DNA from: an uncultured Spirochaetaceae bacterium
GTDB taxonomy: Bacteria > Spirochaetota > Spirochaetia > DSM-27196 > PWMO01
DNA: 56,539 nucleotides
Assembly: GCA_964623865.1 (NCBI GenBank)
Contig: CAZUVX010000013.1
Coordinates: 1-56,539 of the forward strand
Reading direction: 5' to 3'
Below are positions 13,867 to 52,053 of the stretch, one piece after another. Position 1 is the first letter of the stretch. Each line of letters starts with the position of its first letter. The notes under the pieces are model-generated. The model had not been told where the DNA came from. It searched no databases and saw only the letters and a list, made by a program, of their open reading frames with translations. A program made the position numbers and the translations under genes.

Positions 13867-15762
<1,896 letters not shown>

Positions 15763-15766
<4 letters not shown>

Positions 15767-22142: not shown

Positions 22143-23374
22143 GTTGGTCTCTCCTTGGATACTTCACCGTCCCGGGCGGGGCTTGATGGCGAGCCCGGTG
22201 GAGCCCTTCGTGGCGACCTCGCCCCGTCGGGGCGCTTCCCCGCGTGAGCGGCCGCCGCCGGCGCGACCGGTGTGCCTCCCTGTCGTGCCGACTCTCGCGC
22301 GTCAAGGGAGATCTCGAGGGCGCATTGTGCATCCTCGAGGGAGCAGGCAACGGCGCCACCGTATTCCACCGTCCGGGCGAAGTGCTCGGTGTAGGCGCGA
22401 ATGCTCTCCGGCTCGGTTACCTCGGGTCCGAAGGTCCGCACGTGAGCGTCTTCGGGAGAATCCGACGAGGTGCCCCACGCAACCAGACCCAGGTGGTGAG
22501 CCTGGCCATAGTCCAGGCTGGTGTACGGCGCATCCTTGAGGCCGCACCACACCGTCCCGTCGGTGCCGTGCACCTGAATGGTGAGATTGAAGTCGAAGCC
22601 GGTAAGGGCGTGGGAGAGCTGCAGTATGCCGCCGTTCTCGTATCTACCGTTGATATACGCGACGTCTTCGTAGTCGAAATCGCGGTGGATGTCGTCGACG
22701 GTGACGCACTGCACTTCGGAGACCTCCAGGCGCGGAATGAACCGCGCCAAGTCCACCCAGTGAGAGGTCTCTTCGACAATGAGCCCACCCGAGAGCTCCT
22801 CGCGCTGGATCCACTGGTTCCACTTGTCCCGCTTGAAGGGTGTACGGAAATGGTACAGGGAGAATGCGCGAACCGTCCCGGTGAAGCTTTGCACCAGCTC
22901 CCGTACCGCCGTAACTGCCGGGTTGACGCGGAACTCGTATCCCACTGCGGCTCGGATACCCCGCTTCTCCGCGTCGCGTCCCGCCGCCACGACCGCGGCA
23001 GCGGCCCCTCGGGTCAACGCAATCGGCTTCTCCAGGAGAAGGTGCTTCCCCGCCTCGAGGACCTGCAGCGCCTGCTCGCCGTGCTGGTAGTCGGGAGTGC
23101 ACACACTCACCATGTCGATCTCCGGATCCGCGAGCACCTCATCCAGGGATTGGTACGTGCGCACCCCGAGGTCCTCCCAGGACGCGGCACGCTCCGTTTC
23201 CGAGAAGAGGGTCTTGAGATCCGGCATGCTGCCCTGGTCGAAGGTACCTCCGGGCCCGGTCAGTCGTTCAGGTTGCGCATCGCACACTGCGTAGAGATTC
23301 GCCTCCGAAGAGCGCAGGTATCCCGCGCAGTGTGCCAACCCAATGCCAAGACCCACTACTGCGGCGTTCTTCAC
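22139..23374 (-). CDS. Gfo/Idh/MocA family NAD(P)-dependent oxidoreductase
   Basis: GTG start overlapping the upstream stop (GTGA). N-terminal Rossmann fold (VVGLGIGLAH...VSVCTPDYQHGE...LLEKP) and a C-terminal alpha/beta dimerisation domain. Low-complexity Pro/Ala/Arg C-tail. Confidence 0.85.
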   Translation of the reverse strand: MKNAAVVGLGIGLAHCAGYLRSSEANLYAVCDAQPERLTGPGGTFDQGSMPDLKTLFSETERAASWEDLGVRTYQSLDEVLADPEIDMVSVCTPDYQHGEQALQVLEAGKHLLLEKPIALTRGAAAAVVAAGRDAEKRGIRAAVGYEFRVNPAVTAVRELVQSFTGTVRAFSLYHFRTPFKRDKWNQWIQREELSGGLIVEETSHWVDLARFIPRLEVSEVQCVTVDDIHRDFDYEDVAYINGRYENGGILQLSHALTGFDFNLTIQVHGTDGTVWCGLKDAPYTSLDYGQAHHLGLVAWGTSSDSPEDAHVRTFGPEVTEPESIRAYTEHFARTVEYGGAVACSLEDAQCALEISLDARESARQGGTPVAPAAAAHAGKRPDGARSPRRAPPGSPSSPARDGEVSKERPT

Positions 23375-24570
23375 GTCGGATTCTCCTCAATAAGGCGCCC
23401 ACACTCGGCGCGGATCTCCGCCACCCCGCGAACGTCTTCATCCGGGGCGCCGATGGCACGGAGTCGTTCCTCGAAGCGCGCCAGATAGGCGTCCAGGCGC
23501 CGTGAGTCGACGGGCCGGCTCGTCGGGCCCATGAGATCCTCGAAGGCGTCGTAGAAGACCGCATCCAGGACCTCCTCGGGCAGACGCAGCCCCGTCACGG
23601 TGGGCACGGCGGCCCGAGTCGGTTCGAAGGGGTTCTCGAAGACCGCGTCCGAGGTCAGGAAGCGCAGGAGGCGCCTGGTACCCTCGGCGTTCTCTTCAGG
23701 GCTGCGCCGCGGCAAGTCTTGGCGATGCCCGGGGAACCAGAAGCCGTCGCTGCCGAAGAGAATGCGATGCCGGAAGGTATGGAAGAAGGAGCGGGCATCC
23801 TCGTAACGGCGGTAGAGCTCCGCGTAGAAGTAGAGCCCCGGGGCGAGGTCTAGAACCGCGTTCGGGTAGCGATGCATGAAGGTGTAGAAAGAAGGAAGAT
23901 CGCCGGCACGGAAGAGCAGGTGCGGGAAGATGAAGGTCGTGTCGCCGTGCACCGCGCAGATCGCCGCGGCCTGGCGCTGCAGTTCCTCGAAGGAAGGTAC
24001 CCCGGGGGCGTCGTAGCGGATGCCGAGCTCCGCGTTGATCCCGCCGCTTTGCCCGCGCCAGAACAGCGGCGGGTCGGCGACGTGAATGACAACCGGCATG
24101 CCCAGTCGGCCCGCCTCGTGAAAGAGCGGCCCATAGGCGGCACCGTGCAGAGGCAAGCCGGTACGCGCCTGAAAGTGGGGCTTGCCCGCCCACATCTTGA
24201 TACCGTCGAAGCCGATTGCGTGCAGCTCCCGCAGTTGCGCCGCAAAGTCTACCTCGACGTCGGCGACCTGGTGGACGAGCCCGCTGTAGTCCAGGCCGCC
24301 GAAGGCGAAGACGCTCACCTCAGGGGCGACGTCGCTGAAGGGGTTGAAGCGGTTGTCCTTGTCGCCCTCAACGAGCTCATCCACAAGGGCCGGGGCGACA
24401 AGCTTGCCGTAGATGGCCTCCGGGTTGAAGTTCATCCGGTGGAAATCCGGCAGCGACACAATGCCGACCGCCTCCAGATTGAAGGCGTGAATGTACTCGG
24501 CAAAGGCCCGGATCTGCCGGTGATCGGAGAAGTGAACATGGGAGTCCGCCAGTGGTCGTAGTGAAAGCAT
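23371..24570 (-). CDS. Amidohydrolase-superfamily metal-dependent hydrolase (amidohydrolase_2-like; possible lactonase or decarboxylase type)
   Basis: 399 aa. N-terminal DSHVHF (HxH metal motif) and later VVIHVADP and FPHLLF segments. TIM-barrel hydrolase-like; its substrate is unknown. Confidence 0.7.
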   Translation of the reverse strand: MLSLRPLADSHVHFSDHRQIRAFAEYIHAFNLEAVGIVSLPDFHRMNFNPEAIYGKLVAPALVDELVEGDKDNRFNPFSDVAPEVSVFAFGGLDYSGLVHQVADVEVDFAAQLRELHAIGFDGIKMWAGKPHFQARTGLPLHGAAYGPLFHEAGRLGMPVVIHVADPPLFWRGQSGGINAELGIRYDAPGVPSFEELQRQAAAICAVHGDTTFIFPHLLFRAGDLPSFYTFMHRYPNAVLDLAPGLYFYAELYRRYEDARSFFHTFRHRILFGSDGFWFPGHRQDLPRRSPEENAEGTRRLLRFLTSDAVFENPFEPTRAAVPTVTGLRLPEEVLDAVFYDAFEDLMGPTSRPVDSRRLDAYLARFEERLRAIGAPDEDVRGVAEIRAECGRLIEENPT

Positions 24571-25452: not shown

Positions 25453-26310
25453 CTATCCCTTCACGGCCCCGGCGGTGAGGCCCTTGATGATCCGCTCGTG
25501 CAACAGGATGTAGACAACGATCATGGGAATGATGGCAATGATGATGGCTGCATACATGGAGGTGTAGTCGGTTCGGAACTGGCTCGTGAAGAACCGGATC
25601 CCGAGCTGGAGCGTTCGCGACCTCTCGGATGCCGTCAGGAGCAGGGCGTAGATGAACTCGTTCCAGGAGAAGAGAAAGGCGAAGGTTCCCGCCGTCACCA
25701 GCCCCAGCTTGGACAGGGGAAGCACGATCCGCGCGTACCGTTGGAAGAATCCGCACCCGTCAATTATGCTCGCCTCCTCCAGCTCCCTGGGAATGGTCTT
25801 CATGAACCCGTGGACCAGGAAGAGGGAGATCGGAATGTTGATTCCCGAGTAGGTGATGACCAGCGCCCAGAGGGTGTCGTACAGCCCCATGCTCATGATG
25901 ATGCGGAAGTACGGGACCATAAGCGCGACGATGGGCACCAGAACTCCCGCCAGTATCAGGTTGAGTAGCGCGTTCTGGAACTTGAAGACGAACCGCGAGA
26001 AGACGTACGCCGCCATGGAGACGACAACAAGGTTCACCACCGTTGAAGCACCGGAAACGAAGAACGAGTTCAGAAATAGTCGATGCAGTCCCGATATCTG
26101 TACCGCTTCCACGTAGTTGGAGAACTGCGGTACATCCGGCAGGCTGAACGGCTCGGTCTGCAGCTCCAAATTGGTCTTCAAGGAGCCCACCAGGAGCCAC
26201 ACCAGGGGCACGAAGGTGGTGAACAAGAAGAAGATCAGTACCGCCCACTTGGCGATCTTTGCGACGTAATCGGTTGCCGACAGTCGGCGCGTTTTCTTGC
26301 TACGTCCCAC
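25453..26310 (-). CDS. Carbohydrate ABC transporter permease (MalG-like)
   Basis: Six-TM BPD-transporter protein with an EAA-like loop (EASIIDGCGFFQRYARIVLP). Start uncertain (GTG at 26310 just after the upstream stop; the ORF is open to ATG 26379). Confidence 0.85.
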   Translation of the reverse strand: MGRSKKTRRLSATDYVAKIAKWAVLIFFLFTTFVPLVWLLVGSLKTNLELQTEPFSLPDVPQFSNYVEAVQISGLHRLFLNSFFVSGASTVVNLVVVSMAAYVFSRFVFKFQNALLNLILAGVLVPIVALMVPYFRIIMSMGLYDTLWALVITYSGINIPISLFLVHGFMKTIPRELEEASIIDGCGFFQRYARIVLPLSKLGLVTAGTFAFLFSWNEFIYALLLTASERSRTLQLGIRFFTSQFRTDYTSMYAAIIIAIIPMIVVYILLHERIIKGLTAGAVKG

Positions 26311-26320
26311 AACCGGCCCC

Positions 26321-27229
26321 CTACTGCATGGATTCCGCGACGGGGTCGCGTCGCCCGATAAACCGACGAACGAGGACAATGATCACAGCTCCCACTGCGA
26401 TCAGCGTTGCACCGATCGAGTTGGCCACACCGTACTCGAGACCGCTCAGCTTCCGGTAGAGCAACAGGGCCATGACGGAGGTCGTGTTCGCCGGACCTCC
26501 CCGCGTCATGAGAAAGGTCGCCTCGAAGTGGCGTAATCCGAAGGCGATCGCCAGAGTCATGGCGGTAACCAGCACCCCGCGAATCATGGGAATGGTGATG
26601 AACCGCTCCTGCTGCCAGACGTTCGCACCGTCGATCTCCGCGGACTCGTAGAAGGACTCGGGAACCGACATGGTCCCGGCCAGAATGATGATCATGAAAT
26701 AGCCGATGTAGAGGAGCTCCTGAAGGATCACCGCGGGCAACGCCGTCTCTACCTGCCCGAGCCAGTTGTTGGTCCACTCCTCCAGGCCGATCGCCTCCAG
26801 AAAGGCGTTGATGGCGCCGAACTCGGCGTTGTACAGAGCCAGCCACAACATGGCAATAGCAACCTTCGAAATGACATTGGGCAGGAAGTAGACGGTACGC
26901 AGCACCCGCCACGCCCGAGGCTTCCGCGCCAGTATCATTGCGACGGTCGCCGCCAGAAAGATCTGAACGAACCCCAGCGAGAAGGCCCAGATGAAGTTGT
27001 TCCGCAAGGAGAGCTGGAAGCTCTGGCTCTGAAAGTTGCGAACGTAGTTCTGCAAACCAAGGAACTCCGGCACTCCCACACCGTTCCACTGGGTGAAGCT
27101 TATGAAGAACACATAGATGAGCGGATAGATGAAGAACATCCCGTAGAGGGTCAGAATCGGCAGCAGGAAGAGGAGAATGCCCTTCCAGTTCAGTCTGAAG
27201 CTCGAAATCCCTTTACCCGTGCCCGCCAC
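26321..27229 (-). CDS. Carbohydrate ABC transporter permease (MalF-like)
   Basis: 302 aa with an EAA loop (ESAEIDGANVWQQERFITIP). CUT1-family architecture. Confidence 0.88.
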   Translation of the reverse strand: MAGTGKGISSFRLNWKGILLFLLPILTLYGMFFIYPLIYVFFISFTQWNGVGVPEFLGLQNYVRNFQSQSFQLSLRNNFIWAFSLGFVQIFLAATVAMILARKPRAWRVLRTVYFLPNVISKVAIAMLWLALYNAEFGAINAFLEAIGLEEWTNNWLGQVETALPAVILQELLYIGYFMIIILAGTMSVPESFYESAEIDGANVWQQERFITIPMIRGVLVTAMTLAIAFGLRHFEATFLMTRGGPANTTSVMALLLYRKLSGLEYGVANSIGATLIAVGAVIIVLVRRFIGRRDPVAESMQ

Positions 27230-27326: not shown

Positions 27327-28598
27327 CTAATCGGTGTACTGCTGCAGGTTCTCGACGAACTCCTCGGGAGTCTGTCGGTCAAGCGCCATGGCGCCGAAGC
27401 CCTGACCGAGCTCTGCAATGAGGTCGACAGGGTAATTGGCCTGCATGTGCTCCACGGTGAATTCCGCGTTGCTGAAGGCCTCAATGAAGCGAGCCTGGAG
27501 CGGATCCACCTCGTCCTCGGAGAGGCTGTACTTGATGGCGAACATGGACCCGGCATCCAGGGAGATGCGCCGCACGTTCTCCGGATCAGTCATGAACTGC
27601 ATGAAGGCGACGACCGCCTCGCGCTTTCGCGGATCGTCGGTGTTCGCCGCGGCCAGGTTGGACAGGGGGAAGGAGATCTGGTGGCCGTGGAAGTCACCCA
27701 CCTGCGGTGCCGGAGTGAGGCGAGTTGCGTCCTTCACGTCGGGGGCCTGCTCTGCAACGTTACCGATGAACCAGGGCCCGTTGATGAAGATGGCGGTGCG
27801 CTCGGACATGTAGTGACCGCTGGACTCACCGGGGCCGGCGCCGACGGCGTCGCTCGTCGTGTAGTCCTTGAACATGCGCTGCATGATCTCGGCGGCTTCC
27901 ACGTACTGCGGATGCGACAGCGGGCGGTCCCACACATCGGGTCCGCCGATGCTGGCGAGGATGTGCGAGTACCAGAGCATGGAGGTCCAAGCGTTGGACC
28001 CGCCGGTCATCTGCGAGGTCGGTGCAATGTCGTTGGCTTTCAGATCCTCCGCCATTTCCCAGAACTCGTCGATGGTCTCGGGAAAGCTGTCCCAGCCCGC
28101 CTCGGCAAGGAGATCCTCGTTGTACCAGATCGGGGTAACGCCGACTTCGAAGGGTACGCTCTTCACGGCGCCGTCACGGGCCGCTCCCTCAACGGTGCCG
28201 GAAACGAAGTTGTCTCCCCAGTCCCCTTCCAGCTCTTCGGTGAAGTCGAAAAGCAGGTCGCCTTCGTAGTACTGAAAGGTCGTGGGGTCGGGATTGAAGA
28301 CAAAGAGATCCGGGACCTGGCCCGCCGCAATGGACGCGTTGATCTTGTCACGATACCCGTCGGTGTCGGGGTTCGCCTCGATCTCGACCTTATACCGGCC
28401 CTCGTACTCGGCGTTGAACTCCTCGACGAGAGTCTCAACGATCTCGGCCTTGGCGTCCTGGCCGACCCAGAAGGTCGGGAACTCGAGGACTACTTCGCCC
28501 TCTTCCTGCTCACCCTGCCCGGCGGCAAAGGCGGAGCCTAGACTAACCGTGAGCAGCACGAGCAGTGCCACCCCTACAGTTAGAAACCGCTTGTTCAT
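27327..28598 (-). CDS. Sugar ABC transporter substrate-binding protein (family 1 extracellular solute-binding protein)
   Basis: 423 aa. Signal peptide MNKRFLTVGVALLVLLTVSLGSAFAAG, then an acidic SBP_bac_1-like body. First gene of the transporter unit. Confidence 0.85.
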   Translation of the reverse strand: MNKRFLTVGVALLVLLTVSLGSAFAAGQGEQEEGEVVLEFPTFWVGQDAKAEIVETLVEEFNAEYEGRYKVEIEANPDTDGYRDKINASIAAGQVPDLFVFNPDPTTFQYYEGDLLFDFTEELEGDWGDNFVSGTVEGAARDGAVKSVPFEVGVTPIWYNEDLLAEAGWDSFPETIDEFWEMAEDLKANDIAPTSQMTGGSNAWTSMLWYSHILASIGGPDVWDRPLSHPQYVEAAEIMQRMFKDYTTSDAVGAGPGESSGHYMSERTAIFINGPWFIGNVAEQAPDVKDATRLTPAPQVGDFHGHQISFPLSNLAAANTDDPRKREAVVAFMQFMTDPENVRRISLDAGSMFAIKYSLSEDEVDPLQARFIEAFSNAEFTVEHMQANYPVDLIAELGQGFGAMALDRQTPEEFVENLQQYTD

Positions 28599-28712: not shown

Positions 28713-29933
28713 CTATCCACCAACGGTGGAGAAAAAGCCGTCAAAGACCAGGTCCGCCGCACCTTGTCCGGCGATTACCGGATCGTACTCGTGCGGCACA
28801 ATGTCGCGTTGCACCGCCGCTGCGAAGGGCCTCAGGGAACCGAGACTCTCCCGTAGCGCGTCACACAGCACCTCCGACAACGCCTGGGAACGCGTCACAA
28901 TGAGAACCGCCTCCGGGTTGAGCGTGTTCAGCAAGCTGTACACCGCCGTAACCAGATGCGCCTTTGCTTCATCGAGGGTTCGCAGCACCTCCTCGTCTCC
29001 TGCAGCGAGGCGGGCGAAGAAATCCTCGATGCTGGGAACCTCCGCCTCCCGGCGCAGGACCTCCTCGCTGAGATAGGTCTCCAGACATCCCCGGCGCCCG
29101 CACCGGCACTCCGGCCCGGACGGGTCCACGACCAGGTGGCCCACCTCGAGGGCGGTCCGGTGGTGGTTCACGAAGAGCGCGCCGTTTTGAATGAAGGCGC
29201 CGCCGACGCCGGCTCGCAGCACCAGAGTGAGCACGGATCGGCGTCCCAGCACCGATCCGTAGCGGTACTCAGAAAGGGCAATCACCGCCGCGTTATTGTG
29301 AAGGTGCACCGGGACGCCGAAGACCTCCTCCAGGCGCTCCCGCAATGGGAAGCCGTCCATTCCGTCGATCCGCGGGTAGCGAAGAACGACGCCGGACTCA
29401 AGGTCCACCATACCCGGTGCGCCGACCCCGATTCCCAGGAGACGGTCGCGATCTATACCCGCCTGGTCAATCGCCTCGGTGATCAGCGCCTCGAGGCGCT
29501 CCAGGATCTCTTCGACTCCGGTGAGACCGTTGAGGTCCACAACATCCCGGTAGACCGGGGCTCCCGCGAAGTCGACCACCACGGCGGAGGCCGACCGCGA
29601 CCAGAAGTCCACACCTACTACGTAGAGGGCGTCGGGATTGACGCAGTAGTACGCCGGGCGGCGCCCTTTGCGCTCGCCCTCCGACCGCTCGACGGGCGGA
29701 TCCGACCGTTTCTCCCCCTGTCGCTCCGAGAGCCTCTCTGCGTCCTCGACACAGTTGCTGATGAAGCCCTGCTCCTCCAGGACCTGGAAGATGCGGAATA
29801 CCGTCGGCGGCTTGAGCCCGGTGAGCTGCGCAACCTGACTCTGGGACAATCCGCTCTGACGGCGGATGAGGCTCAACACCAGCTTCTCGTTGCGGGCGCG
29901 AATGTCGGCGCTGCGGAGGGGCTTCGCTTCCAT
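28713..29933 (-). CDS. ROK family transcriptional regulator
   Basis: N-terminal wHTH (RARNEKLVLSLIRRQSGLSQSQVAQLTGLKPPTVFRIFQVLEEQGFI). ROK glucokinase-like body with the zinc motif CRCGRRGCLETY. A charged low-complexity insert of about 35 aa lies between the two domains. Confidence 0.88.
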   Translation of the reverse strand: MEAKPLRSADIRARNEKLVLSLIRRQSGLSQSQVAQLTGLKPPTVFRIFQVLEEQGFISNCVEDAERLSERQGEKRSDPPVERSEGERKGRRPAYYCVNPDALYVVGVDFWSRSASAVVVDFAGAPVYRDVVDLNGLTGVEEILERLEALITEAIDQAGIDRDRLLGIGVGAPGMVDLESGVVLRYPRIDGMDGFPLRERLEEVFGVPVHLHNNAAVIALSEYRYGSVLGRRSVLTLVLRAGVGGAFIQNGALFVNHHRTALEVGHLVVDPSGPECRCGRRGCLETYLSEEVLRREAEVPSIEDFFARLAAGDEEVLRTLDEAKAHLVTAVYSLLNTLNPEAVLIVTRSQALSEVLCDALRESLGSLRPFAAAVQRDIVPHEYDPVIAGQGAADLVFDGFFSTVGG

Positions 29934-31279
29934 CAGCGGTTTCCCTCTCCCGGCGCAGCCCCGGGACGGATGCGTGCGACCGTGGCGTTGGCAATCGGCA
30001 TGACCGCCACGTGCGCGTCCGCCGGCAGCGCCGCCAACACCGCCTCCACTGCTTCCTGTGCGGACGGCATGGGCTCCAGCAGCAGTCGGCGCACTCGCGC
30101 CGGCTCCATGGTGGAAACGAGGATCACTCTGCGTCCGGCTGCGTCCCGGGCAATCTGGAACGCCTTGTGGGGACCTACGTGGAACCCCTCCCGGGCGAAT
30201 CGTTCCAGTACCTCAGCGTTGGAGGAGCACTCCCGCACCCACGTCTCGTACTTCTCGCTGCCGGTTCCCTCCGGGCACGCCGCAAGCAGGACAATCGGCG
30301 CACCGGGCGCTGCAATGAGAGCGGCGTGGGCCAGCGCTTTCTGGGCCTGGTAGAGATTGATGTCTTTGGGATGCCCCCCGGGGGACGCAATGACCGCATC
30401 TGCAGCGCGAGGAACCTCGACCTCGAAGATGCTTCGGGCAATCTCGACGCCGGCGCGCATGACCTCCCCCGGTCGTCCCGCAACGGCGTCGACGAGCTCC
30501 TTCTGGCGATTGAGAACTGCGTTGAGGGCAAGGTCGACCCGCACCATCGTCCCCATCTCCTCGACGTCGTCACGCGTCGGGTTGCCCGCCAGGTTGCCCA
30601 GGCGGGCCGCCTCATGGCTCATGAAGGCGTGGTTGTAGTCGACGGTCTCGAATCCGGCAAGGCCGATCACGGCGCTCTTCACGCCGCCGGAGTATCCCAT
30701 GAACTGGTGGGGCTCAATGTTCCCCACGACAATGCGCAGGTCCGCCTCCAGAAAGCGGCGGTTCATCCATACCGGCGTTCCCCGAGAGGTGGTGCCGACG
30801 CGATCCAGGTTCTCGGTGTCATACGCGTCGTGACTGACCACACGGTAACCCTCCACCACTTCACCGGGCAGGATTCCCGGGAACTCCCCGGGATCCATGG
30901 GCGCGTGGGTCCCCGTCGCAACGAGGAAGGTTATGTTCTCCGCGACAAAGCCGACGGCGTGGAGCTTCTTCAGGAGGGGCGGCAGGAGCACGTCGTGGGG
31001 GACCGGGCGCGTTTTGTCGTTCACCGCAATGGCGACGGTTTTCAGGCCGGCGAAGTCTTCCCAGGTAATGCAGCCGACCAGGGTGTCCAGCGCCTCTTCC
31101 ACGCGGCCCTGCGGATCCGCGGCGCCCTCCCGGGGCACCGGAGCCACCTCGCAGGCACGGAAGGAGGCGGGCAGCTCAACGGCTACCGTGTCGCGTCCGT
31201 AGGGCAGATGGAAACTCGCCGCGTCCACGTCATCCTCCCGGCCGTGGGCCGCGCCGGAGCGACCGCTGCCGCCCGACAC
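29933..31279 (-). CDS. LarA family (nickel-pincer nucleotide-dependent) 2-hydroxyacid racemase/epimerase
   Basis: 448 aa with motifs AVNDKTRPVPH, LVATGTHAP, NIEPHQFMGYSGGVKS, DYNHAF and INLYQAQKAL. As I recall them, these match the cofactor-binding and catalytic residues of lactate racemase LarA. Confidence 0.8.
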   Translation of the reverse strand: MSGGSGRSGAAHGREDDVDAASFHLPYGRDTVAVELPASFRACEVAPVPREGAADPQGRVEEALDTLVGCITWEDFAGLKTVAIAVNDKTRPVPHDVLLPPLLKKLHAVGFVAENITFLVATGTHAPMDPGEFPGILPGEVVEGYRVVSHDAYDTENLDRVGTTSRGTPVWMNRRFLEADLRIVVGNIEPHQFMGYSGGVKSAVIGLAGFETVDYNHAFMSHEAARLGNLAGNPTRDDVEEMGTMVRVDLALNAVLNRQKELVDAVAGRPGEVMRAGVEIARSIFEVEVPRAADAVIASPGGHPKDINLYQAQKALAHAALIAAPGAPIVLLAACPEGTGSEKYETWVRECSSNAEVLERFAREGFHVGPHKAFQIARDAAGRRVILVSTMEPARVRRLLLEPMPSAQEAVEAVLAALPADAHVAVMPIANATVARIRPGAAPGEGNR

Positions 31280-31301
31280 GGCCCCTCCGTTCCGGCACGT
31301 C

Positions 31302-32453
31302 CTATGCGCTCCGGTACAGCTTCGTCAGCACGAATTCGTTGTGACGAAGCGCTTCGGCCGAAGTCAGTCGGCCGTTGATGGTTCGGTACATGACGTCCAT
31401 GACCGCATCCGCCGCCTGGTCCAGGTTCATCTCCAGACGCAGCATGCCGGTAAGATCGACGTCAATGTGCTCGCTCATGGTCTCCACCGTCAACGGGTTC
31501 GCCGAAATCTTCATGACGGGAATGATGGGGTTGCCGATGATGTTGCCCTGCCCGGTCGTGAAGAAGTGAAGCACCGATCCCCCTGCCGCGCACAGTGTCA
31601 CCTGCTCGGCGGCGGCGCTCGAGCTGTCCATGAAGTGGAGCCCCCCGGCCCTCGCCGGTTCCTCCGCCGGTTTCAACACCGAGGTCACCTGGTTGTTCCC
31701 GATCTTCTCGACGTTTCCAAGGGCCTTCTCTTCGATGGTCGAGAGACCGCCCCGGATGTTTCCTTCGGTGGGCTGAGAGCCCAGGAGGTCCGCGCCGGTA
31801 CCCGTGATGAAGTCCTGGTAGTCCTGGAAGGTCTTCATGAAGTCGGCCTTGACCTCTTCAGTGATACACTTGTCGGCAATCTTGTCCTCTGCGCCGGTGA
31901 CCTCGCTGGTCTCGCCGAAGAAGGCAGTCGAGCCCTCCGCGAGCATGCGCTCCAAGGTGCGGCCGATCGCCGGATTGGAGGCGAGCCCCAGCGTCGTATC
32001 GGACTCGCCGCACTTCGCGCTCACCCACATATCCTTCAGAGAGATAGGTTCCCGCTTTCGCTCGCTCGCCCACTGCACCAATTGCCGCGCCTTCTGCGCC
32101 GCTTGATAGATCGTCTTCAGGTCCCCGGCGCGCTCAATGCTGAAGGACTCCACGGGCTTGCCCGTCGCAGCGATCCCATCGGCAATGCGCTTGGTCCAGT
32201 TCGGCTCAATGCCGATGACAATCGCCGCGGCAATGTTGGGATTACGCCCCGTACCGATGAGCGTCCGGAAGGTGAGCTCCAGGTCCTCACCGAACTGCAG
32301 ACGTCCGTACGGATGGGGAAGCGCCATGACGTCGCGAATCAGATAGGACACCCCTTCCGCGGCGGCGTTGGAGATATCGTCCACAGGGATGACTGCAACG
32401 TAGTTGCGCACCCCTACTCGTCCGTTCTCGCGTCGATATCCGGTCAGTTCCAT
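31302..32453 (-). CDS. UxaA family dehydratase/lyase large subunit (SuyB-like; candidate (2R)-sulfolactate sulfo-lyase beta subunit)
   Basis: ELTGYRRENGRVGVRNYVAVIPV..., the UxaA C-terminal family over its whole length. GAGGTGGG RBS and ATG at 32453 sharing a TAATG junction with the small subunit (alternative GTG at 32462). Confidence 0.75.
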   Translation of the reverse strand: MELTGYRRENGRVGVRNYVAVIPVDDISNAAAEGVSYLIRDVMALPHPYGRLQFGEDLELTFRTLIGTGRNPNIAAAIVIGIEPNWTKRIADGIAATGKPVESFSIERAGDLKTIYQAAQKARQLVQWASERKREPISLKDMWVSAKCGESDTTLGLASNPAIGRTLERMLAEGSTAFFGETSEVTGAEDKIADKCITEEVKADFMKTFQDYQDFITGTGADLLGSQPTEGNIRGGLSTIEEKALGNVEKIGNNQVTSVLKPAEEPARAGGLHFMDSSSAAAEQVTLCAAGGSVLHFFTTGQGNIIGNPIIPVMKISANPLTVETMSEHIDVDLTGMLRLEMNLDQAADAVMDVMYRTINGRLTSAEALRHNEFVLTKLYRSA

Positions 32454-32749
32454 TACGCCCACCTCACACTCTTAACGTTCTGGGTATGGACGTGGTCGCC
32501 GGTGGTGATCTTCCTGGTCGCCCGTCCAATGCTCCGTCCGTACTTCACTACGTCTTTGCCTTCGTCGATGTCGCGCAAGGCGATCTTGTGCCCCAGGGGA
32601 ATCTCCTCGCCGGCAGTAACGGTCGCAATCTCCTTGCCGTCCAGCGTCACCGCCTTCACCGAGGTCCCCGCTGCGACGTCCTGCACCACGACGGCCACAT
32701 CATCGTTGGCCTCGTGCATGAGTGCACCGTGCTTCATAGCTGTTGCCAT
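32453..32749 (-). CDS. SAF-domain small subunit of a split UxaA-family enzyme (SuyA-like)
   Basis: 98 aa. DDVAVVVQDVAAGT...EIPLGHKIALRDIDEGKDVVKYGRSIGRATRKITTGDHVHTQN is the UxaA N-terminal/SAF pattern. The start may instead be the second ATG at 32737, which has better RBS spacing. Confidence 0.75.
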   Translation of the reverse strand: MATAMKHGALMHEANDDVAVVVQDVAAGTSVKAVTLDGKEIATVTAGEEIPLGHKIALRDIDEGKDVVKYGRSIGRATRKITTGDHVHTQNVKSVRWA

Positions 32750-32761
32750 CCTCCGTGATTA

Positions 32762-32790
32762 TTGACCACAATGTTTTTGTTTCTTACAAT
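32762..32790 (+). promoter_or_regulatory. Sigma70-like promoter for the transaldolase-aldehyde dehydrogenase operon (TTGACC-17 nt-TACAAT)
   Basis: TTGACC at 32762..32767, a 17-nt spacer, then TACAAT at 32785..32790, inside the only AT-rich patch of the 198-bp divergent intergenic region. This implies a 5'UTR of about 150 nt. Confidence 0.55.
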
Positions 32791-32797
32791 AAGAAAC
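32779..32797. promoter_or_regulatory. Perfect inverted repeat GTTTCTTA-caa-TAAGAAAC (candidate repressor operator)
   Basis: 8+3+8 perfect palindrome overlapping the -10 of the predicted tal promoter. It lies in the leader of the divergent suyA-like operon. Confidence 0.5.
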
Positions 32798-32841
32798 TAA
32801 TAAAGGTGTACCGGTGTTCGGAGGAATTGTCAAGGGCAGTG

Positions 32842-32881
32842 CCCGGGTAACCTGGATTCCCGGGTAACCCGGGATCCCGGG
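32842..32881 (+). repeat. Cluster of four CCCGGG palindromes including a CCCGGGTAACC direct repeat, in the tal 5' leader
   Basis: CCCGGG at 32842, 32859, 32868 and 32876. CCCGGGTAACC at 32842..32852 and 32859..32869. The copies are mutually complementary, so alternative hairpins are possible. Confidence 0.6.
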
Positions 32882-32947
32882 GAGCCTCGGCACCGGTAGC
32901 CGGTCGGCACCGAAGCATGAGTCTGTTTCCCATAAGGAGTACGCGAC

Positions 32948-33592
32948 ATGAAGTTCTTTCTCGACACGGCCATGGTAGATGAGATCAAGGAGGCGGCCCG
33001 CTGGGGCATCCTCGACGGCGTGACCACCAATCCAACGCATGTTTCAAAGACCGGGCGCACCGTCTCGGACCTCTATCCGGAGATTGTGAAGCTCGTCGAC
33101 GGCGACGTCAGTCTGGAGACGATCGGCCTCGACGCCGACACGATCGTCAAGGAGGGGCGCGACCTCGCAAAGGTCGGCGACAACGTGGTCGTAAAGGTTC
33201 CGGTCATGAAGGAGGGTCTTGTCGCCGTGAAGCGGCTGGCAGCCGAGGGAATCCGAACCAACGTGACCGTCAACTTTCAGCCCGTTCAGGCCCTCATGGC
33301 GGCCAAGGCGGGGGCCTCTTACATCAGCCCCTTCGTAGGTCGCCTCGATTACGTGGGCCACGACGGCATGGAGCTGGTTGAGCAAATCCGCCAAATCTAC
33401 GACAACTACGGCTACGAGACGGAGATCATTGTCGCCGCGGTACGGCACCCGCTTCACGTCGTCCAGGCGGCACTGATCGGCGCCGAAGTGTGCACCATGA
33501 ACTTCGACGTAATGAGCAAGCTCTACGATCACCCGCTGACCGATCAGGGCATCGAGATGTTTCTGGAAGACTACAAGAAGGTGCCGAAGTAA
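32948..33592 (+). CDS. Transaldolase, TalC/Fsa subfamily (candidate 6-deoxy-6-sulfofructose transaldolase)
   Basis: AAGGAG RBS. 214 aa, MKFFLDTA...DGVTTNP, Schiff-base Lys in VVVKVP. Glu in SLETIG and Phe in SPFVGRLD indicate the transaldolase rather than the F6P-aldolase subtype. Confidence 0.88.
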   Translation: MKFFLDTAMVDEIKEAARWGILDGVTTNPTHVSKTGRTVSDLYPEIVKLVDGDVSLETIGLDADTIVKEGRDLAKVGDNVVVKVPVMKEGLVAVKRLAAEGIRTNVTVNFQPVQALMAAKAGASYISPFVGRLDYVGHDGMELVEQIRQIYDNYGYETEIIVAAVRHPLHVVQAALIGAEVCTMNFDVMSKLYDHPLTDQGIEMFLEDYKKVPK

Positions 33593-33601
33593 GGGGGCCT
33601 C

Positions 33602-35035
33602 ATGGACACGAAGAAGCTGTATCTCAACGGCGAATGGGTCGACACCGGCAACTACTTCACCGTCGTCGATCCGGGCAATCGGGAGGAGGTTGCCCGGGTC
33701 GCTGCGGCGGGACCCGAGCTTGCCAAGAAGGCCGTGGACGATGCCTGGGAAGCCTTCGCCACCTGGCGACGCCTCACCGGGATCAAGCGGGGAGACTACC
33801 TCCTCGCGGTTGCCGAGTGCCTGGAGCGCCGCAAGGATGAGATCGGCAAGACCATCGTTCGGGAGAACGGCAAGCCCCTCGGCCAGGCCGTCGGTGAGGT
33901 GAACGTCGCGGTAGACCATCTGCGCTGGTTCGCCGAGGAGGCGCGCCGGGGGTACGGACGGATCATCCCGCACCAGGCCGACGGCAAGCGCCACCTGGTG
34001 CTCAAGCAACCGGTGGGCCCGGTCGCCTGCATCTCTCCGTGGAACTTCCCGCTTGTGCTGTCGGTGCGGAAGGTCGCCCCCGCCCTGGCGGCGGGGTGCA
34101 CAGTGATCCTTCGGCCCGCAACGCAGACCCCGCTCTGCAACGTTGCCCTGGCTGAGTGCTTTGACGAGGTCGGTATCCCGAAGGGAGTCTTCCAGCTCAT
34201 TGCAGGCCCGGCGAGCAAGATCGTCGGCGAGTTCATGGACCACCCGAACCTCCGCAAGATCTCCTTCACCGGATCCACCGAGGTGGGCAAGAAGCTGCTG
34301 CAACAGTCGGCGAAGACCGTGACGAAGCTCTCCCTTGAGCTCGGCGGACACGCCCCCGTAGTCGTCTTCGAAGATGCGGACCTGGACACGGCCGTCGAGG
34401 GCGCACTGATCACCAAGTTCCGCAACACCGGCCAGTCGTGTATTGCTGCAAACCGGATCTACGTGCAGCGCTCAATTTACGAGGAGTTCCTGAAACGCTT
34501 CGGGGAGAAGGCATCCAGGATGAAGGTCGGCTACGGCCTGGATGAAGGGGTCGAGATCGGCGCCATTGTAGATGAAGAGGGCCTCAAGACCGCCCTGGCA
34601 CACATTGAGAACGCCAAGGAGTCAGGGGGTCGCGTCATCGCCGGAGGAAGGGTCGTCGAAGGCGCAACGGGCAACTTCCTCGAACCCACCGTCATTGCAG
34701 ATGTTCCCGACACTGCCGCGTGCATGCGCGAGGAGACCTTCGCCCCGATCGCACCGGTCGTCGCCTTCGACACCGAAGAGGAGGCGATACGGCAGGCCAA
34801 CAACACGCGCTACGGTCTTGCCGCCTACTTCTACACCCAGGACATCAATCGCGGTTTCCGCGTCGCCGAGGCCCTGGAGGCCGGTACGGTCGGCTGGAAC
34901 GACGCCGTTCCCTCGACCAGCAACGCCCCTTTCGGCGGCTTCAAGGAGAGCGGCCTGGGCCGCGAGCTCGGACAGGAGGGCATGGAAGCCTTCATGGAGA
35001 CGAAGCACGTCTCCCTGGGCGGGGTGGACGTGTAA
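33602..35035 (+). CDS. NAD(P)+-dependent aldehyde dehydrogenase, GabD-like (candidate sulfolactaldehyde dehydrogenase)
   Basis: 477 aa. ALDH motifs FTGSTEVGKKL, ELGGHAP, catalytic Cys in GQSCIAANR, and EETFAPIAP. Starts 9 nt after the transaldolase stop. Confidence 0.9.
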   Translation: MDTKKLYLNGEWVDTGNYFTVVDPGNREEVARVAAAGPELAKKAVDDAWEAFATWRRLTGIKRGDYLLAVAECLERRKDEIGKTIVRENGKPLGQAVGEVNVAVDHLRWFAEEARRGYGRIIPHQADGKRHLVLKQPVGPVACISPWNFPLVLSVRKVAPALAAGCTVILRPATQTPLCNVALAECFDEVGIPKGVFQLIAGPASKIVGEFMDHPNLRKISFTGSTEVGKKLLQQSAKTVTKLSLELGGHAPVVVFEDADLDTAVEGALITKFRNTGQSCIAANRIYVQRSIYEEFLKRFGEKASRMKVGYGLDEGVEIGAIVDEEGLKTALAHIENAKESGGRVIAGGRVVEGATGNFLEPTVIADVPDTAACMREETFAPIAPVVAFDTEEEAIRQANNTRYGLAAYFYTQDINRGFRVAEALEAGTVGWNDAVPSTSNAPFGGFKESGLGRELGQEGMEAFMETKHVSLGGVDV

Positions 35036-35176: not shown

Positions 35177-35923
35177 CTATAGCCCCGGCACTATCGCACT
35201 CGCGACCAGATACAGCCCCACGACAACGAGAGCCACGTCCGTTACGGTCTTGAAGCGGGCGGCGTCCACCTTTCCGGAGAGCCGCGCACCCAGAAAGACT
35301 GAGGCCAGGACAACGGGTATGAACGGCGCCGACCGCGCCGCAACGGATGCGTTGATGCTTCCCGCGACAATGTGGGTCGCCAGGATTCCCACACTCATGA
35401 CGACGAAGTAGAACTGTACATTGGACTTCGCGCGCATCCGGTCGGGATCCGAGGCGTACAGGTAGGCCACCATACCCGGGCCGGGCGTGGCGAAGGCGCC
35501 GCCCAGCAGTCCCGCGATAAGCGTGAAGATGTAGCCGACTCCGCGCTTCCCCAGTGCCCTCCGGGAGCGCTCCACCATTGTGATGTTCCAGATGATGAGC
35601 ACGATCACCACCCCACCGAGCACGCCGGTTATGACCTCCTGAGGCAGCGAATAGAGAAAGAGTGCACCCAGGGGCAAGACCACCATTCCCGCCACGCCGA
35701 AACGAAGAATCCGGCGGTACTCGACCCCGTGACGGTGGAGGAAGAAGTTGTAGAGCACCACCGCCCCGCCGGGCAGGATGGCCATGCCGACCGCCTCAGG
35801 GGTCGGATAGACCACGGCGAGGGCCGGCACGACGATCAATCCGTAGGCAAAGCCGGTGAGGCCTTGGACGAATCCCCCAAGGAAGTAGAGGCCGGCAGTG
35901 AGCAGAATGAGCGAAAGGTCCAT
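35177..35923 (-). CDS. TauE/SafE family sulfite/organosulfonate exporter
   Basis: ATG at 35923. 248 aa with 7-8 TM helices. Gly-rich helices (FLGGFVQGLTGFAYG, LIAGLLGGAFATPGPG) are typical of the TauE/SafE family. Confidence 0.85.
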   Translation of the reverse strand: MDLSLILLTAGLYFLGGFVQGLTGFAYGLIVVPALAVVYPTPEAVGMAILPGGAVVLYNFFLHRHGVEYRRILRFGVAGMVVLPLGALFLYSLPQEVITGVLGGVVIVLIIWNITMVERSRRALGKRGVGYIFTLIAGLLGGAFATPGPGMVAYLYASDPDRMRAKSNVQFYFVVMSVGILATHIVAGSINASVAARSAPFIPVVLASVFLGARLSGKVDAARFKTVTDVALVVVGLYLVASAIVPGL

Positions 35924-35951
35924 GTGCAAAGCCTCGTTGCGGTCGGACCCG

Positions 35952-37325
35952 CTACCGCCACCCGATCCGCAACTGCCGCGCCAGCTTCTGCAGCAGTCCA
36001 CGATGGTGCCCCTGCACGACACACATATGGTGCGGCATGCCGGCGTGGAGCATCTCCTCGAACCACTCGTTCACATCGACTTCGGTGATTTCCGCGAGAC
36101 CGTTCGTAGCCATGATGTGACGCTTGGGCGTGACGGTGCGGCCCTCGAGGGCGGTCATGTGGTAGAAGCCGTCGGTACGCCACATTCGGAAAATGGTGAC
36201 GGGCATGTCCGCCTTGATAGTGGCTTCCACCACTGCGGGGAGCCGGTTATTGAATTGAACGCCAATGTGCGGGCCGAGCTCCGTCCCCACAGGCTCGCAG
36301 AGCTCGAAGGGTGCCGCCCCGGTATGCCAGATGCCTATGTGCCTCGCGTCATGCTCGAGCCAGTCCGACAGGTAGACCGGACCAATTCCCAGGTCCTCCG
36401 CAATGAGACTGCACAGGGCGCCGTCGACATCTCCCTCCATGGCGATCGCCTTCCCCTCGGAGACGTGCCGTGCGAGGGCCAGGTAGGGCCACTGCTTCAT
36501 GACCGTGGGGAGGTCCGGCCAGTCCCGGAACGCGAGGGCCGAGGAGGCCTCGTTGGTGAGATACTCCTGCATGGCAAGGTAGTACCGCGCCTGTAGAGGC
36601 AGCGCGGATTCGTCGGCATCCCGGTAGGGCAAGCCCAGGGACTCGAAGGCCGAGACCTCGGCGGCGACGGCATCATCCTTCTGGTTCTCTACCCGGCCGA
36701 GAAACTCCTGGACGCTCTCGTGGTAGAGCTGGACTCCGAGCTCGTCATTGAGATCAATGGGGTCGGCGTGGAAGTCCACGAAGCCGGGAGCGTGATACCC
36801 GACCAGCGCCACTTTGCCGCGGCGCAGGTCCGTTGCCGCAACGACCAGGCGGACCGCCTCTTCCAGACGGCCGCGTACCGCCGAGTCGCCGGGATCGCCG
36901 TAGACGAACTCGAAGGGGCGGTTGAGATGGCGCAGCGTTGCCGCCATGACGTGGGTACCGACCAGGGAGTTCGCGCTGATCATGGAACCCTCCTCCTTCT
37001 CCGGCGTCGCCCAGAGAACGAGGGGGCGGTTCCACACCTGCGCGAGCACCGGCGCCAGGCGACCGTCACTGATGGTCGGTTGCGTCACCACGACGGTGTC
37101 GACGCCGGCAGCCTCACACTCCGCGAGAGCCGCCCGCACGCCGGCGTCGTCGGCAATGTTGTCGGAAGGGATGGTCACCCCGAAGGGCGCCTCCCCCGCG
37201 TACGCCCGAAGACGCTTCTTGATCTCGGCGCCCCAGTCGGGGTCGAAGCCGGGCCGCTTCCTGCCGAGGAGGAGCAGTCCGACTCGTCGAGTTGTCAGGT
37301 TGTCACTGTGCTCTCCGGTTGCCAT
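35952..37325 (-). CDS. L-fucose/L-arabinose isomerase family protein (candidate sulfosugar aldose-ketose isomerase)
   Basis: 457 aa. N-terminal Rossmann-like domain and a C-terminal domain with AMEGDVDGAL and GIWHTGAAP segments resembling the metal-binding regions of FucI/AraA-like isomerases. Operonic with the TauE gene. Confidence 0.7.
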   Translation of the reverse strand: MATGEHSDNLTTRRVGLLLLGRKRPGFDPDWGAEIKKRLRAYAGEAPFGVTIPSDNIADDAGVRAALAECEAAGVDTVVVTQPTISDGRLAPVLAQVWNRPLVLWATPEKEEGSMISANSLVGTHVMAATLRHLNRPFEFVYGDPGDSAVRGRLEEAVRLVVAATDLRRGKVALVGYHAPGFVDFHADPIDLNDELGVQLYHESVQEFLGRVENQKDDAVAAEVSAFESLGLPYRDADESALPLQARYYLAMQEYLTNEASSALAFRDWPDLPTVMKQWPYLALARHVSEGKAIAMEGDVDGALCSLIAEDLGIGPVYLSDWLEHDARHIGIWHTGAAPFELCEPVGTELGPHIGVQFNNRLPAVVEATIKADMPVTIFRMWRTDGFYHMTALEGRTVTPKRHIMATNGLAEITEVDVNEWFEEMLHAGMPHHMCVVQGHHRGLLQKLARQLRIGWR

Positions 37326-45070: not shown

Positions 45071-45546
45071 CGAACCATAACCCACACCGCTCCGGTTCCG
45101 CCGTCTCGTCGCTCCGGTGTTCCCATTGCGCCGGTAAGGGGATGATCCTGGAGCAATCGGTGTATTGCCCGCCGCAGCACCGCCCCTTGTGGTGAGTGGA
45201 GTCCTTTTCCGTAAATCACGAGAACCTTGCGAAATCCGCGTCGCGCCGCCTCCCGGATGAAGCTGTCGGTGCGGCGCTCCGCTTCAGGGCGGGTAAGGCC
45301 GTGGAGGTCGAGGGTGTCCTCGATGGGAAGACGTTTGGGCGCGGGATGAGGGGGGCCACCGTGAGCATCGACCTCGGGTCTATTGCCTGAGTCCCCTGCC
45401 GTTTCCTCTTTGTCGACGTCGGCCGGGGGAGGATGCTGCTCCAGAAACGACTCGAGGGCTTTGCGGGTCACATTATGGTGATTGGGCCGCTTCCGGTGTT
45501 CTTGGTCCCACTGTCTCAAGATTTCGCCGAAGTCGTACGGGGTCAT
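45055..45546 (-). CDS. Smr domain-containing protein
   Basis: ATG at 45546 overlaps the upstream stop (ATGA). C-terminal [40 protein letters not shown] is the Smr/MutS2-C pattern. Confidence 0.82.
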
Positions 45547-47663: not shown

Positions 47664-47677
47664 CAGGGGGGCCCCGA

Positions 47678-52046: not shown

Positions 52047-52053
52047 GTCGGCT

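Follow-up and report, generated by a model that had tools for sequence, protein, structure and literature searches.

In sulfoglycolysis the stereocentre of the sugar is retained, which leads to (S)-sulfolactaldehyde and (S)-sulfolactate, whereas the sulfo-lyase SuyAB is specific for (R)-sulfolactate. The only inversion routes described are the pair SlcC/ComC of Chromohalobacter salexigens (Denger & Cook 2010), which converts (S)- to (R)-sulfolactate via sulfopyruvate and thereby feeds SuyAB, and, one step earlier, the pair HpsO/HpsP of Cupriavidus pinatubonensis. Here we describe a DNA stretch of 56,539 nucleotides from an uncultured Spirochaetaceae bacterium (contig CAZUVX010000013.1, in the following called the window), in which a homologue of the lactate racemase LarA is encoded directly behind suyAB. 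The prediction of a new substrate specificity within a known superfamily is well supported, and the protein of 448 amino acids is probably a sulfolactate racemase that needs nickel-pincer nucleotide (NPN) as its cofactor and is co-transcribed with suyAB.

Compared to SlcC/ComC, two NAD(P)-dependent and unrelated proteins with free sulfopyruvate as intermediate, the LarA route would comprise one enzyme and no turnover of a nicotinamide cofactor. HpsO/HpsP solve the same stereochemical mismatch upstream of SuyAB and their genes lie beside an orthologous suyAB, but this dehydrogenase pair acts on the diol sulfonate 2,3-dihydroxypropane-1-sulfonate (DHPS) and not on the acid. A dedicated racemase in front of a stereospecific C3-sulfonate sulfo-lyase is described for Bilophila wadsworthia (CuyB; J Biol Chem 2024), although CuyB is an amino-acid racemase acting on cysteate and belongs to another protein family with another chemistry.

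Among the LarA-type enzymes, Mar1 of Desulfitobacterium hafniense (Dhaf_4417) is the only characterised member of LarAH5 and the source of the family name (Desguin et al. 2020, Sci Rep 10:18123). It shares with the window protein the NCBIfam family, the Q-F loop, the GPHK motif and, based on the locus of its D. dehalogenans orthologue, the neighbourhood of a SuyAB orthologue, as well as the NPN-dependent racemase chemistry on 2-hydroxyacids, which is predicted for the window protein. In contrast, Mar1 was assayed on malate and tartrate only, its gene belongs to a cluster for the uptake and respiration of sulfolactate and not of sulfoquinovose, and the substrate proposed here departs from the published name. 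Mar2 of Thermoanaerobacterium thermosaccharolyticum (LarAH6; PDB 6d6z, 7s91) has the same fold and catalytic residues and, for an acidic side chain, the same pocket motifs Q-K and H-K. It differs in a Tyr at the position of Gln192, in its KM for malate, which is sub-millimolar, and in its malic-enzyme context.

The anaerobic pathway from DHPS to SuyAB was published without a step inverting the stereocentre, and the text mentions no DUF2088/LarA gene beside suyAB of Desulfovibrio sp. DF1 (Burrichter 2018). In the sulfonate papers examined, the word racemase occurs only in the title of Denger & Cook 2010 or for the SlcC/ComC pair. A survey from 2026 screens genomes for sulfolactate use by SuyAB, SlcC and ComC only, and the string 'sulfo' is absent from the 2024 follow-up paper on LarA homologues. 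An earlier note on this DNA, made from the sequence alone, had proposed the racemase and was aware of no described LarA-type enzyme for sulfolactate; likewise, no link of LarA or the nickel-pincer cofactor to sulfolactate or other sulfonates was found in the searchable full-text literature, subscription-only papers lying outside this search.

Operon structure and orthology of the sulfo-lyase

The gene arrangement given in the earlier note was found in every detail on the minus strand (Table 1). The genes suyA and suyB overlap by one base in a TAATG junction, which contains the ATG of suyB; counted mechanically from an upstream GTG, the open reading frame of suyB comprises 386 instead of 383 amino acids. 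The larA homologue starts exactly 22 nt past the stop codon of suyB, and its TGA has one base in common with the ATG of the ROK gene. A sequence scan of the operon showed no terminator between suyA, suyB, the larA homologue and the ROK gene, and in a search for promoters and terminators in the operon nothing exceeded the shuffled expectation. Since residues 1-16 of the LarA homologue showed a pLDDT below 50 and its homologues begin near residue 20, translation may in fact start from the GTG at position 31228, behind a GGAGGA.

The closest relatives of the locus are found in uncultured Spirochaetaceae metagenome-assembled genomes with the same gene order, in which the LarA homologue is 85, 75 and 69% identical and SuyB 93-96% identical; the relative with 85% is CAZZIE01. 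Apart from the window, the exact LarA-homologue protein is on record only on a Logan contig of 6.3 kb. Both genes are under purifying selection, with dN/dS values against the closest relatives of about 0.03 for suyB and 0.13-0.16 for the LarA homologue, on which the selection is weaker. That suyA, suyB and the LarA homologue are real genes is far beyond chance. The position of the ROK gene directly after the LarA homologue is kept in the Spirochaete relatives L002, L004, L011, L014, L027, L028, L040 and L065. The divergent intergenic region in front of suyA contains the perfect palindrome TTTCTTAttgTAAGAAA, several direct and inverted repeats of the CCCGGGTAACC type and promoter-like hexamers on the plus strand. 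The palindrome and the repeats are possible operators for the co-transcribed ROK regulator.

The SAF/UxaA pair, described as SuyAB-like in the earlier note, belongs to the SuyAB orthogroup and not to the altronate or galactarate dehydratases. In a comparison with 72,556 plasmids and chromids, the window SuyB had a small set of matches with 57-61% identity, originating from Paracoccus, Sinorhizobium, Cupriavidus, Rhodococcus and Methylobacterium, after which the identity dropped to 39% or less. The match from Cupriavidus pinatubonensis (57.7%) is located in the order hpsN-hpsO-MFS-(hpsP)-suyA-suyB and the match from Paracoccus versutus adjoins a gene of the sulfate-exporter family; these arrangements are those known for the degradation of DHPS and cysteate via SuyAB. 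An all-against-all comparison gave 58-78% mutual identity for the SuyB orthogroup (window, Desulfitobacterium, Cupriavidus and Paracoccus), while a separate clade of UxaA paralogues was 34-41% identical to SuyB. The window protein itself shares 58-61% identity with SuyB of Cupriavidus, Paracoccus and Desulfitobacterium. The window SuyA was 40-49% identical to SuyA of Cupriavidus, Paracoccus and Desulfitobacterium.

The combination of a split small SAF subunit (98 amino acids) with a UxaA-type subunit of the approximately 42-kDa class (383 amino acids), encoded by overlapping genes, is the architecture of SuyAB, and close relatives of the window SuyB are labelled '(2R)-sulfolactate sulfo-lyase subunit beta' by JGI. 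The PDB contains no SuyAB structure, and the sole NCBIfam and PDB matches of the UxaA-type protein were galactarate dehydratases, with 130 bits compared to a cut-off of 731. On the basis of this score and the orthology to SuyB, an assignment of the pair as altronate/galactarate dehydratase was rejected. By orthology, the UxaA-type protein is a true SuyB, for which the cleavage of (R)-sulfolactate is predicted.

Family and pocket residues of the LarA homologue

By its domains and its predicted fold, the window protein is a member of the LarA superfamily. The AlphaFold (AF2) model reached a pLDDT of 90 and Foldseek TM values of 0.87-0.93 to 9eid, 2yjg and 5huq, and the best solved relative in the PDB was Mar2 (E 3.5e-71, 35% identity). 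The translation contains all motifs reported in the earlier note, namely NDKTRP, ATGTH, EPHQFMGYSGGVK, NH and YQAQK, and these could be mapped onto the catalytic and cofactor residues of Lactobacillus plantarum LarA. In this alignment, D72, R75, H108, H174, K184, H200, Y294, Q295 and K298 (numbering from Desguin 2020, Dataset S2) are all conserved and correspond to D88, R91, H125, H191, K201, H217, Y310, Q311 and K314 of the window protein. Among 80 relatives, two of which dropped out as rows of the alignment, nearly all keep the catalytic and NPN-binding residues.

At the family level, the protein passed the NCBIfam model NF052595 ('nickel-dependent malate racemase, LarAH5 family') with 532.9 bits at a cut-off of 462, while it failed the models for LarAH6 (427 bits compared to 500) and LarA (292 compared to 460). 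The signature of the group, Gln/His-Phe after the catalytic His and G-x-H-K, is present as PHQF and GPHK. The residue following the catalytic His (Q192 in the window protein) is Gln in 77 of 77 suyB-linked homologues, whereas all 12 proteins sampled from groups 4 and 6 have Tyr; group 6 contains the characterised malate racemase Mar2 and group 4 is only predicted to be malate-active. It is the only pocket position separating the suyB-linked proteins from these two groups, and a search for specificity positions showed no clear further signature for a sulfonate. A difference between Tyr and Gln at this position had already been flagged as a sign of altered specificity (Desguin 2020). The smaller, hydrogen-bonding Gln192 would suit the bulkier tetrahedral sulfonate. 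Both the Lys of the GHK motif, the proposed binder of the second acid group of malate, and the Gln in front of the catalytic Lys are kept in the pocket.

Linkage to suyAB, proposed route and rival explanations

In the published grouping of LarA homologues, COG2721 ('altronate dehydratase', the family of UxaA and SuyB) was found beside 19 of 19 group-5 genes and TctC/TctA beside 26% (Desguin 2020, Table S1). The same adjacency is present in the window, where suyB lies immediately upstream of the LarA homologue. Members of group 5 originate from Desulfitobacterium, Desulfovibrio, Desulfomicrobium, Desulfohalobium, Desulfomonile, Moorella, Anaerolinea and others (Desguin 2020). SuyAB from Desulfovibrio sp. 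DF1 was validated biochemically, and suyB with more than 70% identity to that of DF1 was listed for D. desulfuricans, Desulfomicrobium baculatum, Desulfomonile tiedjei and Desulfitobacterium hafniense (Burrichter 2018), taxa which recur in group 5. Respiration of sulfolactate is reported for D. hafniense DCB-2, the strain which carries Dhaf_4417. For D. dehalogenans, the LarAH5 protein is 92% identical to Mar1 (553 bits with NF052595) and encoded in the order SAF-UxaA-LarAH5-TctC-TctA-TctB-GntR-Ldh_2, in which the UxaA protein is a SuyB orthologue (58-62% identity) and the top NCBIfam model of the Ldh_2 protein is sulfolactate dehydrogenase.

The earlier note had suggested a search for LarA homologues adjoining suyAB, and in our own surveys this linkage was recurrent. 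The genome survey comprised 80 loci from Chloroflexota, Spirochaetota, Verrucomicrobiota, Planctomycetota and Acidobacteriota, and in 68 of these the upstream flank measured at least 2.5 kb. Of the 68 loci, 35 had a SuyB orthologue and 13 a UxaA paralogue directly upstream of the LarA homologue, each with a SAF gene. Recurrent neighbours were aldehyde:ferredoxin oxidoreductase (AOR), aldehyde dehydrogenase, transaldolase, GH31 and GH4 glycosidases and YeiH-type exporters. In the metagenome survey of 80 Desulfovibrionales-type loci, the 25 loci with at least 4.5 kb on each side showed a SuyB orthologue in 20 and TctC/TctA in 16 cases, with the LarA-homologue gene located before, after or apart from suyAB. 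In the reverse direction, two of three SuyB orthologues had a LarA homologue within 4 kb, once followed by TauE, which recurs as a neighbour and also lies beside the LarA homologue in L171/L172. Altogether, most of the surveyed relatives adjoin suyAB, sulfoglycolysis genes, TctABC transporters or sulfite exporters, and the linkage to suyAB recurs in six phyla despite a shuffled gene order. On the plasmid and chromid records carrying a SuyB orthologue, no LarAH5-type gene was found, and the two neighbourhoods that were read contain HpsN/HpsO-type dehydrogenase genes, as would be expected if one problem is solved in different ways. The evidence goes beyond what the earlier note could know, because the sole characterised LarAH5 enzyme is a very poor malate racemase, all 19 genes of the group are associated with COG2721 and the link to suyAB is recurrent.

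The inferred route of the window, consisting of transaldolase, sulfolactaldehyde dehydrogenase and SuyAB, contains sulfolactate as the only 2-hydroxy-carboxylate, which is the sulfonate isostere of malate. In agreement with the earlier note, which saw no SlcC/ComC-like pair, tblastn searches of the window found no homologue of the ComC-type Ldh_2, HpsO or HpsP and the family scans no such domain; for SlcC, of which no reference sequence was at hand, its absence from the window refers to the domain scans. In the proposed route, YihQ would free sulfoquinovose, which the SftI-like isomerase would convert to sulfofructose and the transaldolase to (S)-sulfolactaldehyde, followed by oxidation to (S)-sulfolactate by the aldehyde dehydrogenase. 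The LarA homologue would then transiently oxidise C2 by transfer of a hydride to the NPN tethered at Lys201, resulting in bound sulfopyruvate, and return the hydride to the opposite face, with His125 and His191 as acid/base pair, to give (R)-sulfolactate. SuyAB would cleave this product to pyruvate and sulfite, and TauE would export the sulfite. Arg91 would bind the carboxylate, while Lys372 of the GPHK motif and the group-specific Gln192 are the proposed binders of the sulfonate. The analysis showed the gene anatomy, the orthology of the individual parts, the conserved catalytic residues and the recurrent linkage to suyAB; we infer the substrate, the physiological direction of the flux and the roles of the residues.

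The family name suggests a true malate racemase serving the use of D- and L-malate, for which the adjacency of suyAB would have no functional meaning. This explanation agrees with the passed NF052595 model (533 bits), with the racemisation of malate by the family member Mar1 in vitro and with the conserved Lys of the GHK motif, which is thought to bind a second acidic group. However, Mar1 showed a KM for L-malate of 55 mM and a kcat/KM of 0.39 s-1 mM-1 compared to 185 for Mar2, an approximately 470-fold lower efficiency, and its own authors doubted malate as the native substrate (Desguin 2020). Moreover, the gene is not linked to a malic enzyme, a malate transporter or a fumarase, and family scans detected no gene of malate metabolism in the window, where the malate context of the family name is not found. 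As the linkage to suyAB is kept over six phyla despite gene-order shuffling and the pocket Tyr is replaced by Gln in every suyB-linked homologue, a malate racemase is considered quite improbable. A small but real chance is given to a racemase or epimerase of another 2-hydroxy acid, either a different sulfonated hydroxy acid, tartrate, 2-hydroxysuccinamate or glycerate. LarA homologues can be promiscuous with up to 16 substrates (2024 follow-up), about 30% of the relatives have no suyAB nearby, and the NagB-like, Amidohydro_2 and GFO genes are conserved in the cluster without an assigned role. On the other side, no 2-hydroxy-carboxylate except sulfolactate occurs in the inferred route, and the partners in sulfite reducers are only SuyAB, TctABC and a ComC-like dehydrogenase, with no sugar genes. 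Tartrate, the alternative suggested by the Mar1 authors, is apparently a poorer substrate than malate for Mar1, and an enzyme with the same malate efficiency (390 M-1 s-1) in the 2024 follow-up was apparently even poorer on it.

A further explanation treats the SAF/UxaA pair as a sugar-acid dehydratase and the LarA homologue as a C2 epimerase feeding it, in the manner of a gluconate/mannonate epimerase. Hexonate epimerases do exist in the LarA family (2024 follow-up), and galactarate dehydratase is the only enzyme matched by the UxaA protein in NCBIfam and PDB, but this match lies far below its cut-off, the orthology to SuyB of hps/suy clusters is clear, TauE or YeiH sulfite/sulfate exporters are adjacent, and the window protein has Q, F ... 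H, K in place of the GntE signature (E, V, A, H). We regard this explanation as extremely improbable. Only slightly less remote is an intact but inactive LarA homologue, carried along with suyAB as a relic in a host which cannot make NPN. It would account for the absence of larB, larC and larE from the window and from any related flank, but does not agree with the purifying selection acting on the gene against three relatives (dN/dS 0.13-0.16) or with the conservation of all cofactor-binding residues. The lar biosynthesis genes are also missing from the listed context COGs of group 5, yet Mar1 is NPN-dependent (Desguin 2020).

Several observations weigh against the assignment as sulfolactate racemase. 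The window protein is only 40% identical to Mar1, which does turn over malate, and the curators of NCBIfam (June 2026) name LarAH5 a malate racemase. The position in the LarA superfamily, raised in the earlier note, could be assigned to LarAH5 by NCBIfam score, but the neighbour-joining tree of the LarA homologues showed the three contexts interspersed and did not set the suyAB-linked genes apart from the unlinked ones. Approximately 30% of the relatives with adequate flanks have no UxaA-family gene nearby, and one of three SuyB orthologues in the reverse search has no LarA homologue within 6 kb. With LarB, LarC and LarE of L. plantarum (plasmid pLP12-1) as queries, no larB, larC or larE was found in the 56.5-kb window or in 86 related loci (1.37 Mb). 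Sulfite inhibits LarA. The titles of the PDB entries 6c1w and 8ezf describe a covalent sulfite adduct on the NPN cofactor of lactate racemase, and the enzyme would consequently work beside the source of its own inhibitor, the sulfite from SuyAB, unless this is removed fast. The adjacent TauE or, in sulfite reducers, a dissimilatory sulfite reductase may make the combination of racemase and sulfite-producing lyase workable. The sulfite adduct could also mean a built-in feedback, or be the reason for the adjacent TauE exporter.

Taking both sides together, we hold the sulfolactate racemase to be the probable function of the window protein, and lean towards the view, with somewhat less confidence, that the whole LarAH5 family including Mar1 may be sulfolactate racemases. 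If the assignment is true, it would supply the missing inversion step of the anaerobic DHPS-to-SuyAB pathway, give the orphan LarAH5/Mar1 a physiological substrate, bring sulfonates into nickel-pincer chemistry, correct a curated family name and fill a gap in the mineralisation of sulfoquinovose by anaerobes and by single organisms. It would also become easier to predict which organisms fully mineralise sulfoquinovose alone. If the function extends to the whole family, an organosulfonate would for the first time be the substrate of nickel-pincer catalysis, one enzyme would stand in for the SlcC/ComC pair, and the so far unaddressed mismatch of (S)-DHPS or (S)-sulfolactate from sulfoglycolysis with the (R)-specific SuyAB would be resolved in Chloroflexota, Spirochaetota, Verrucomicrobiota, Desulfitobacterium and Desulfovibrionales, including human-gut sulfidogens. 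Thousands of proteins would then bear a wrong equivalog name in NCBIfam. The production of sulfoquinovose is put at approximately 10 Pg per year, and the C3 products DHPS and sulfolactate are described as major currencies of the sulfur cycle and sources of H2S in the gut. The reaction of the NPN cofactor with sulfite, the product of the very next enzyme, raises a mechanistic question.

The surveys also gave a number of observations on related loci. In 13 Chloroflexota loci (L008, L015, L018, L031, L036, L043, L044, L049, L053, L069, L073, L074, L079), a UxaA paralogue replaces SuyB, as for example at L018:8762-9931. This clade shows 68-84% mutual identity, compared to 34-41% to SuyB, and has a SAF partner; L015 and L018 additionally contain an aldehyde dehydrogenase resembling sulfolactaldehyde dehydrogenase, and L018 a YeiH-type exporter. 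The paralogue may be a second type of lyase for sulfolactate or a related sulfonate. AOR genes lie beside the LarA homologue and suyAB at L060:12558-14564 and in 15 other genome loci, in about 15 metagenome loci (including L089-L092, L096, L099, L107, L108, L113, L133, L135, L144 and L147) and at L171:687-2405. By analogy to the DHPS-induced AOR of Desulfovibrio sp. DF1, this recurrence suggests a ferredoxin-linked oxidation of sulfolactaldehyde in anaerobes.

The contigs L124, L150 and probably L125 originate from the human gut and carry LarAH5 with TctC/TctA; suyAB is present in L124 and L150, while none was detected in the examined part of L125. The proposed racemase may therein take part in the formation of H2S from diet-derived sulfolactate or DHPS. 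In L170 (ctg316464), suyAB and the LarA homologue lie beside a phosphofructokinase (PFK)-type kinase, a Cgl0159-like aldolase-fold protein and a GFO oxidoreductase. Based on these neighbours, the module of racemase and lyase seems to combine with different front ends of sulfoglycolysis, either kinase/aldolase-like or transaldolase. L086 (Neomoorella thermoacetica, orthologue of Moth_1926) showed only a GD_AH_C fragment of 85 amino acids on the opposite strand, overlapping the start of the LarA homologue, and no intact suyAB; the locus may be decayed or have a different role.

Surrounding sulfoquinovose cluster

Table 1. Features of the window with position, strand and supporting matches; assignments of function are predictions.
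Feature	Position	Strand	Support
GPH-family glycoside:cation symporter, candidate sulfoquinovose/sulfoquinovosyl-glycerol importer	18439-20226	-	NCBIfam TIGR00792 227 bits, just below cut-off 231
YihQ-type GH31 sulfoquinovosidase	20055-22142	-	NCBIfam PRK10426 861 bits, cut-off 553; PDB 5aed (E. coli YihQ) E 1.5e-202
GFO/IDH/MocA oxidoreductase	22139-23374	-	
Amidohydro_2 protein	23371-24570	-	
NagB-like isomerase/deaminase, 287 aa	24572-25435	-	PDB glucosamine-6-phosphate deaminases E 1.4e-14
Two carbohydrate ABC permeases	26321-27229, 25453-26379	-	Pfam BPD_transp_1
Carbohydrate ABC substrate-binding protein	27327-28598	-	Pfam SBP_bac_1
ROK-family regulator, N-terminal winged helix-turn-helix, 406 aa, last operon gene	28713-29933	-	Pfam ROK + HTH_24/MarR
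LarA homologue, LarAH5 family, proposed NPN-dependent sulfolactate racemase, 448-aa open reading frame from GTG	29933-31279	-	Pfam Lar_N E 8e-54, LarA_C E 1e-15
suyB, large UxaA-type catalytic subunit, sulfolactate sulfo-lyase, 383 aa	31302-32453	-	Pfam GD_AH_second E 1e-34, GD_AH_C E 3e-79
suyA, small SAF-domain subunit of (2R)-sulfolactate sulfo-lyase, 98 aa	32453-32749	-	Pfam SAF
Divergent intergenic region, suyA / transaldolase gene; candidate operators	32750-32947	.	palindrome and repeats in the sequence
TalC/FSA-type transaldolase, proposed sulfofructose transaldolase (sulfo-TAL step)	32948-33592	+	NCBIfam TIGR00875 304 bits, cut-off 246
Aldehyde dehydrogenase, succinate-semialdehyde dehydrogenase (SSADH)/GabD-like, proposed sulfolactaldehyde dehydrogenase	33602-35035	+	NCBIfam SSADH subfamily 557 bits
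TauE/SafE-family sulfite exporter	35177-36022	-	Pfam TauE E 7e-28
Distant SftI (sulfoquinovose isomerase) homologue	35952-37325	-	NCBIfam NF048012 155 bits, below cut-off 700

The gene cluster of the window reads as a sulfo-TAL-type route to sulfolactate combined with desulfonation and sulfite export in one organism. In the PDB, the transaldolase matched the generic transaldolase 1vpx with 263 bits, compared to 159 bits for the sulfofructose transaldolase of B. megaterium (8bc3); its specificity for sulfofructose may be of independent origin here, or the assignment may be wrong. The SftI-like isomerase gene and the ABC transporter are kept in the Spirochaete relatives, and the functions of isomerase and sulfofructose transaldolase are proposed from the conserved context and not from the scores. 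The aldehyde dehydrogenase matched SSADH-type enzymes in the PDB, including 8c54, and its orthologues travel with suyAB and larAH in related loci.

The NagB-like protein showed no Pfam match even at an E-value of 0.01, but contains the motifs DEYL and GINGHLAFNEP. Together with the Amidohydro_2 and GFO proteins it forms a trio which is kept in the Spirochaete relatives L002, L014, L027, L028 and L040, and which might provide another isomerase or act on a sulfosugar of the amino or acetylated kind. A function of the GFO/IDH/MocA protein as NAD-dependent sulfoquinovosidase was considered and dropped, as its PDB matches include no solved sulfoquinovosidase.

Adjoining the sulfoquinovose genes, positions 13867-18449 (minus strand) encode a glycerol kinase (849 bits), a flavoprotein resembling type 2 glycerol-3-phosphate oxidase, a FAD/NAD oxidoreductase and a DUF1667 protein. 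These glycerol genes fit the use of sulfoquinovosyl-glycerol with catabolism of both halves. A Bat-type (aerotolerance-like) operon at positions 45543-53043 (minus strand), comprising a MoxR AAA ATPase, a DUF58 protein, two VWA proteins, TPR proteins and a BatD-like protein, is unrelated to the sulfolactate genes.

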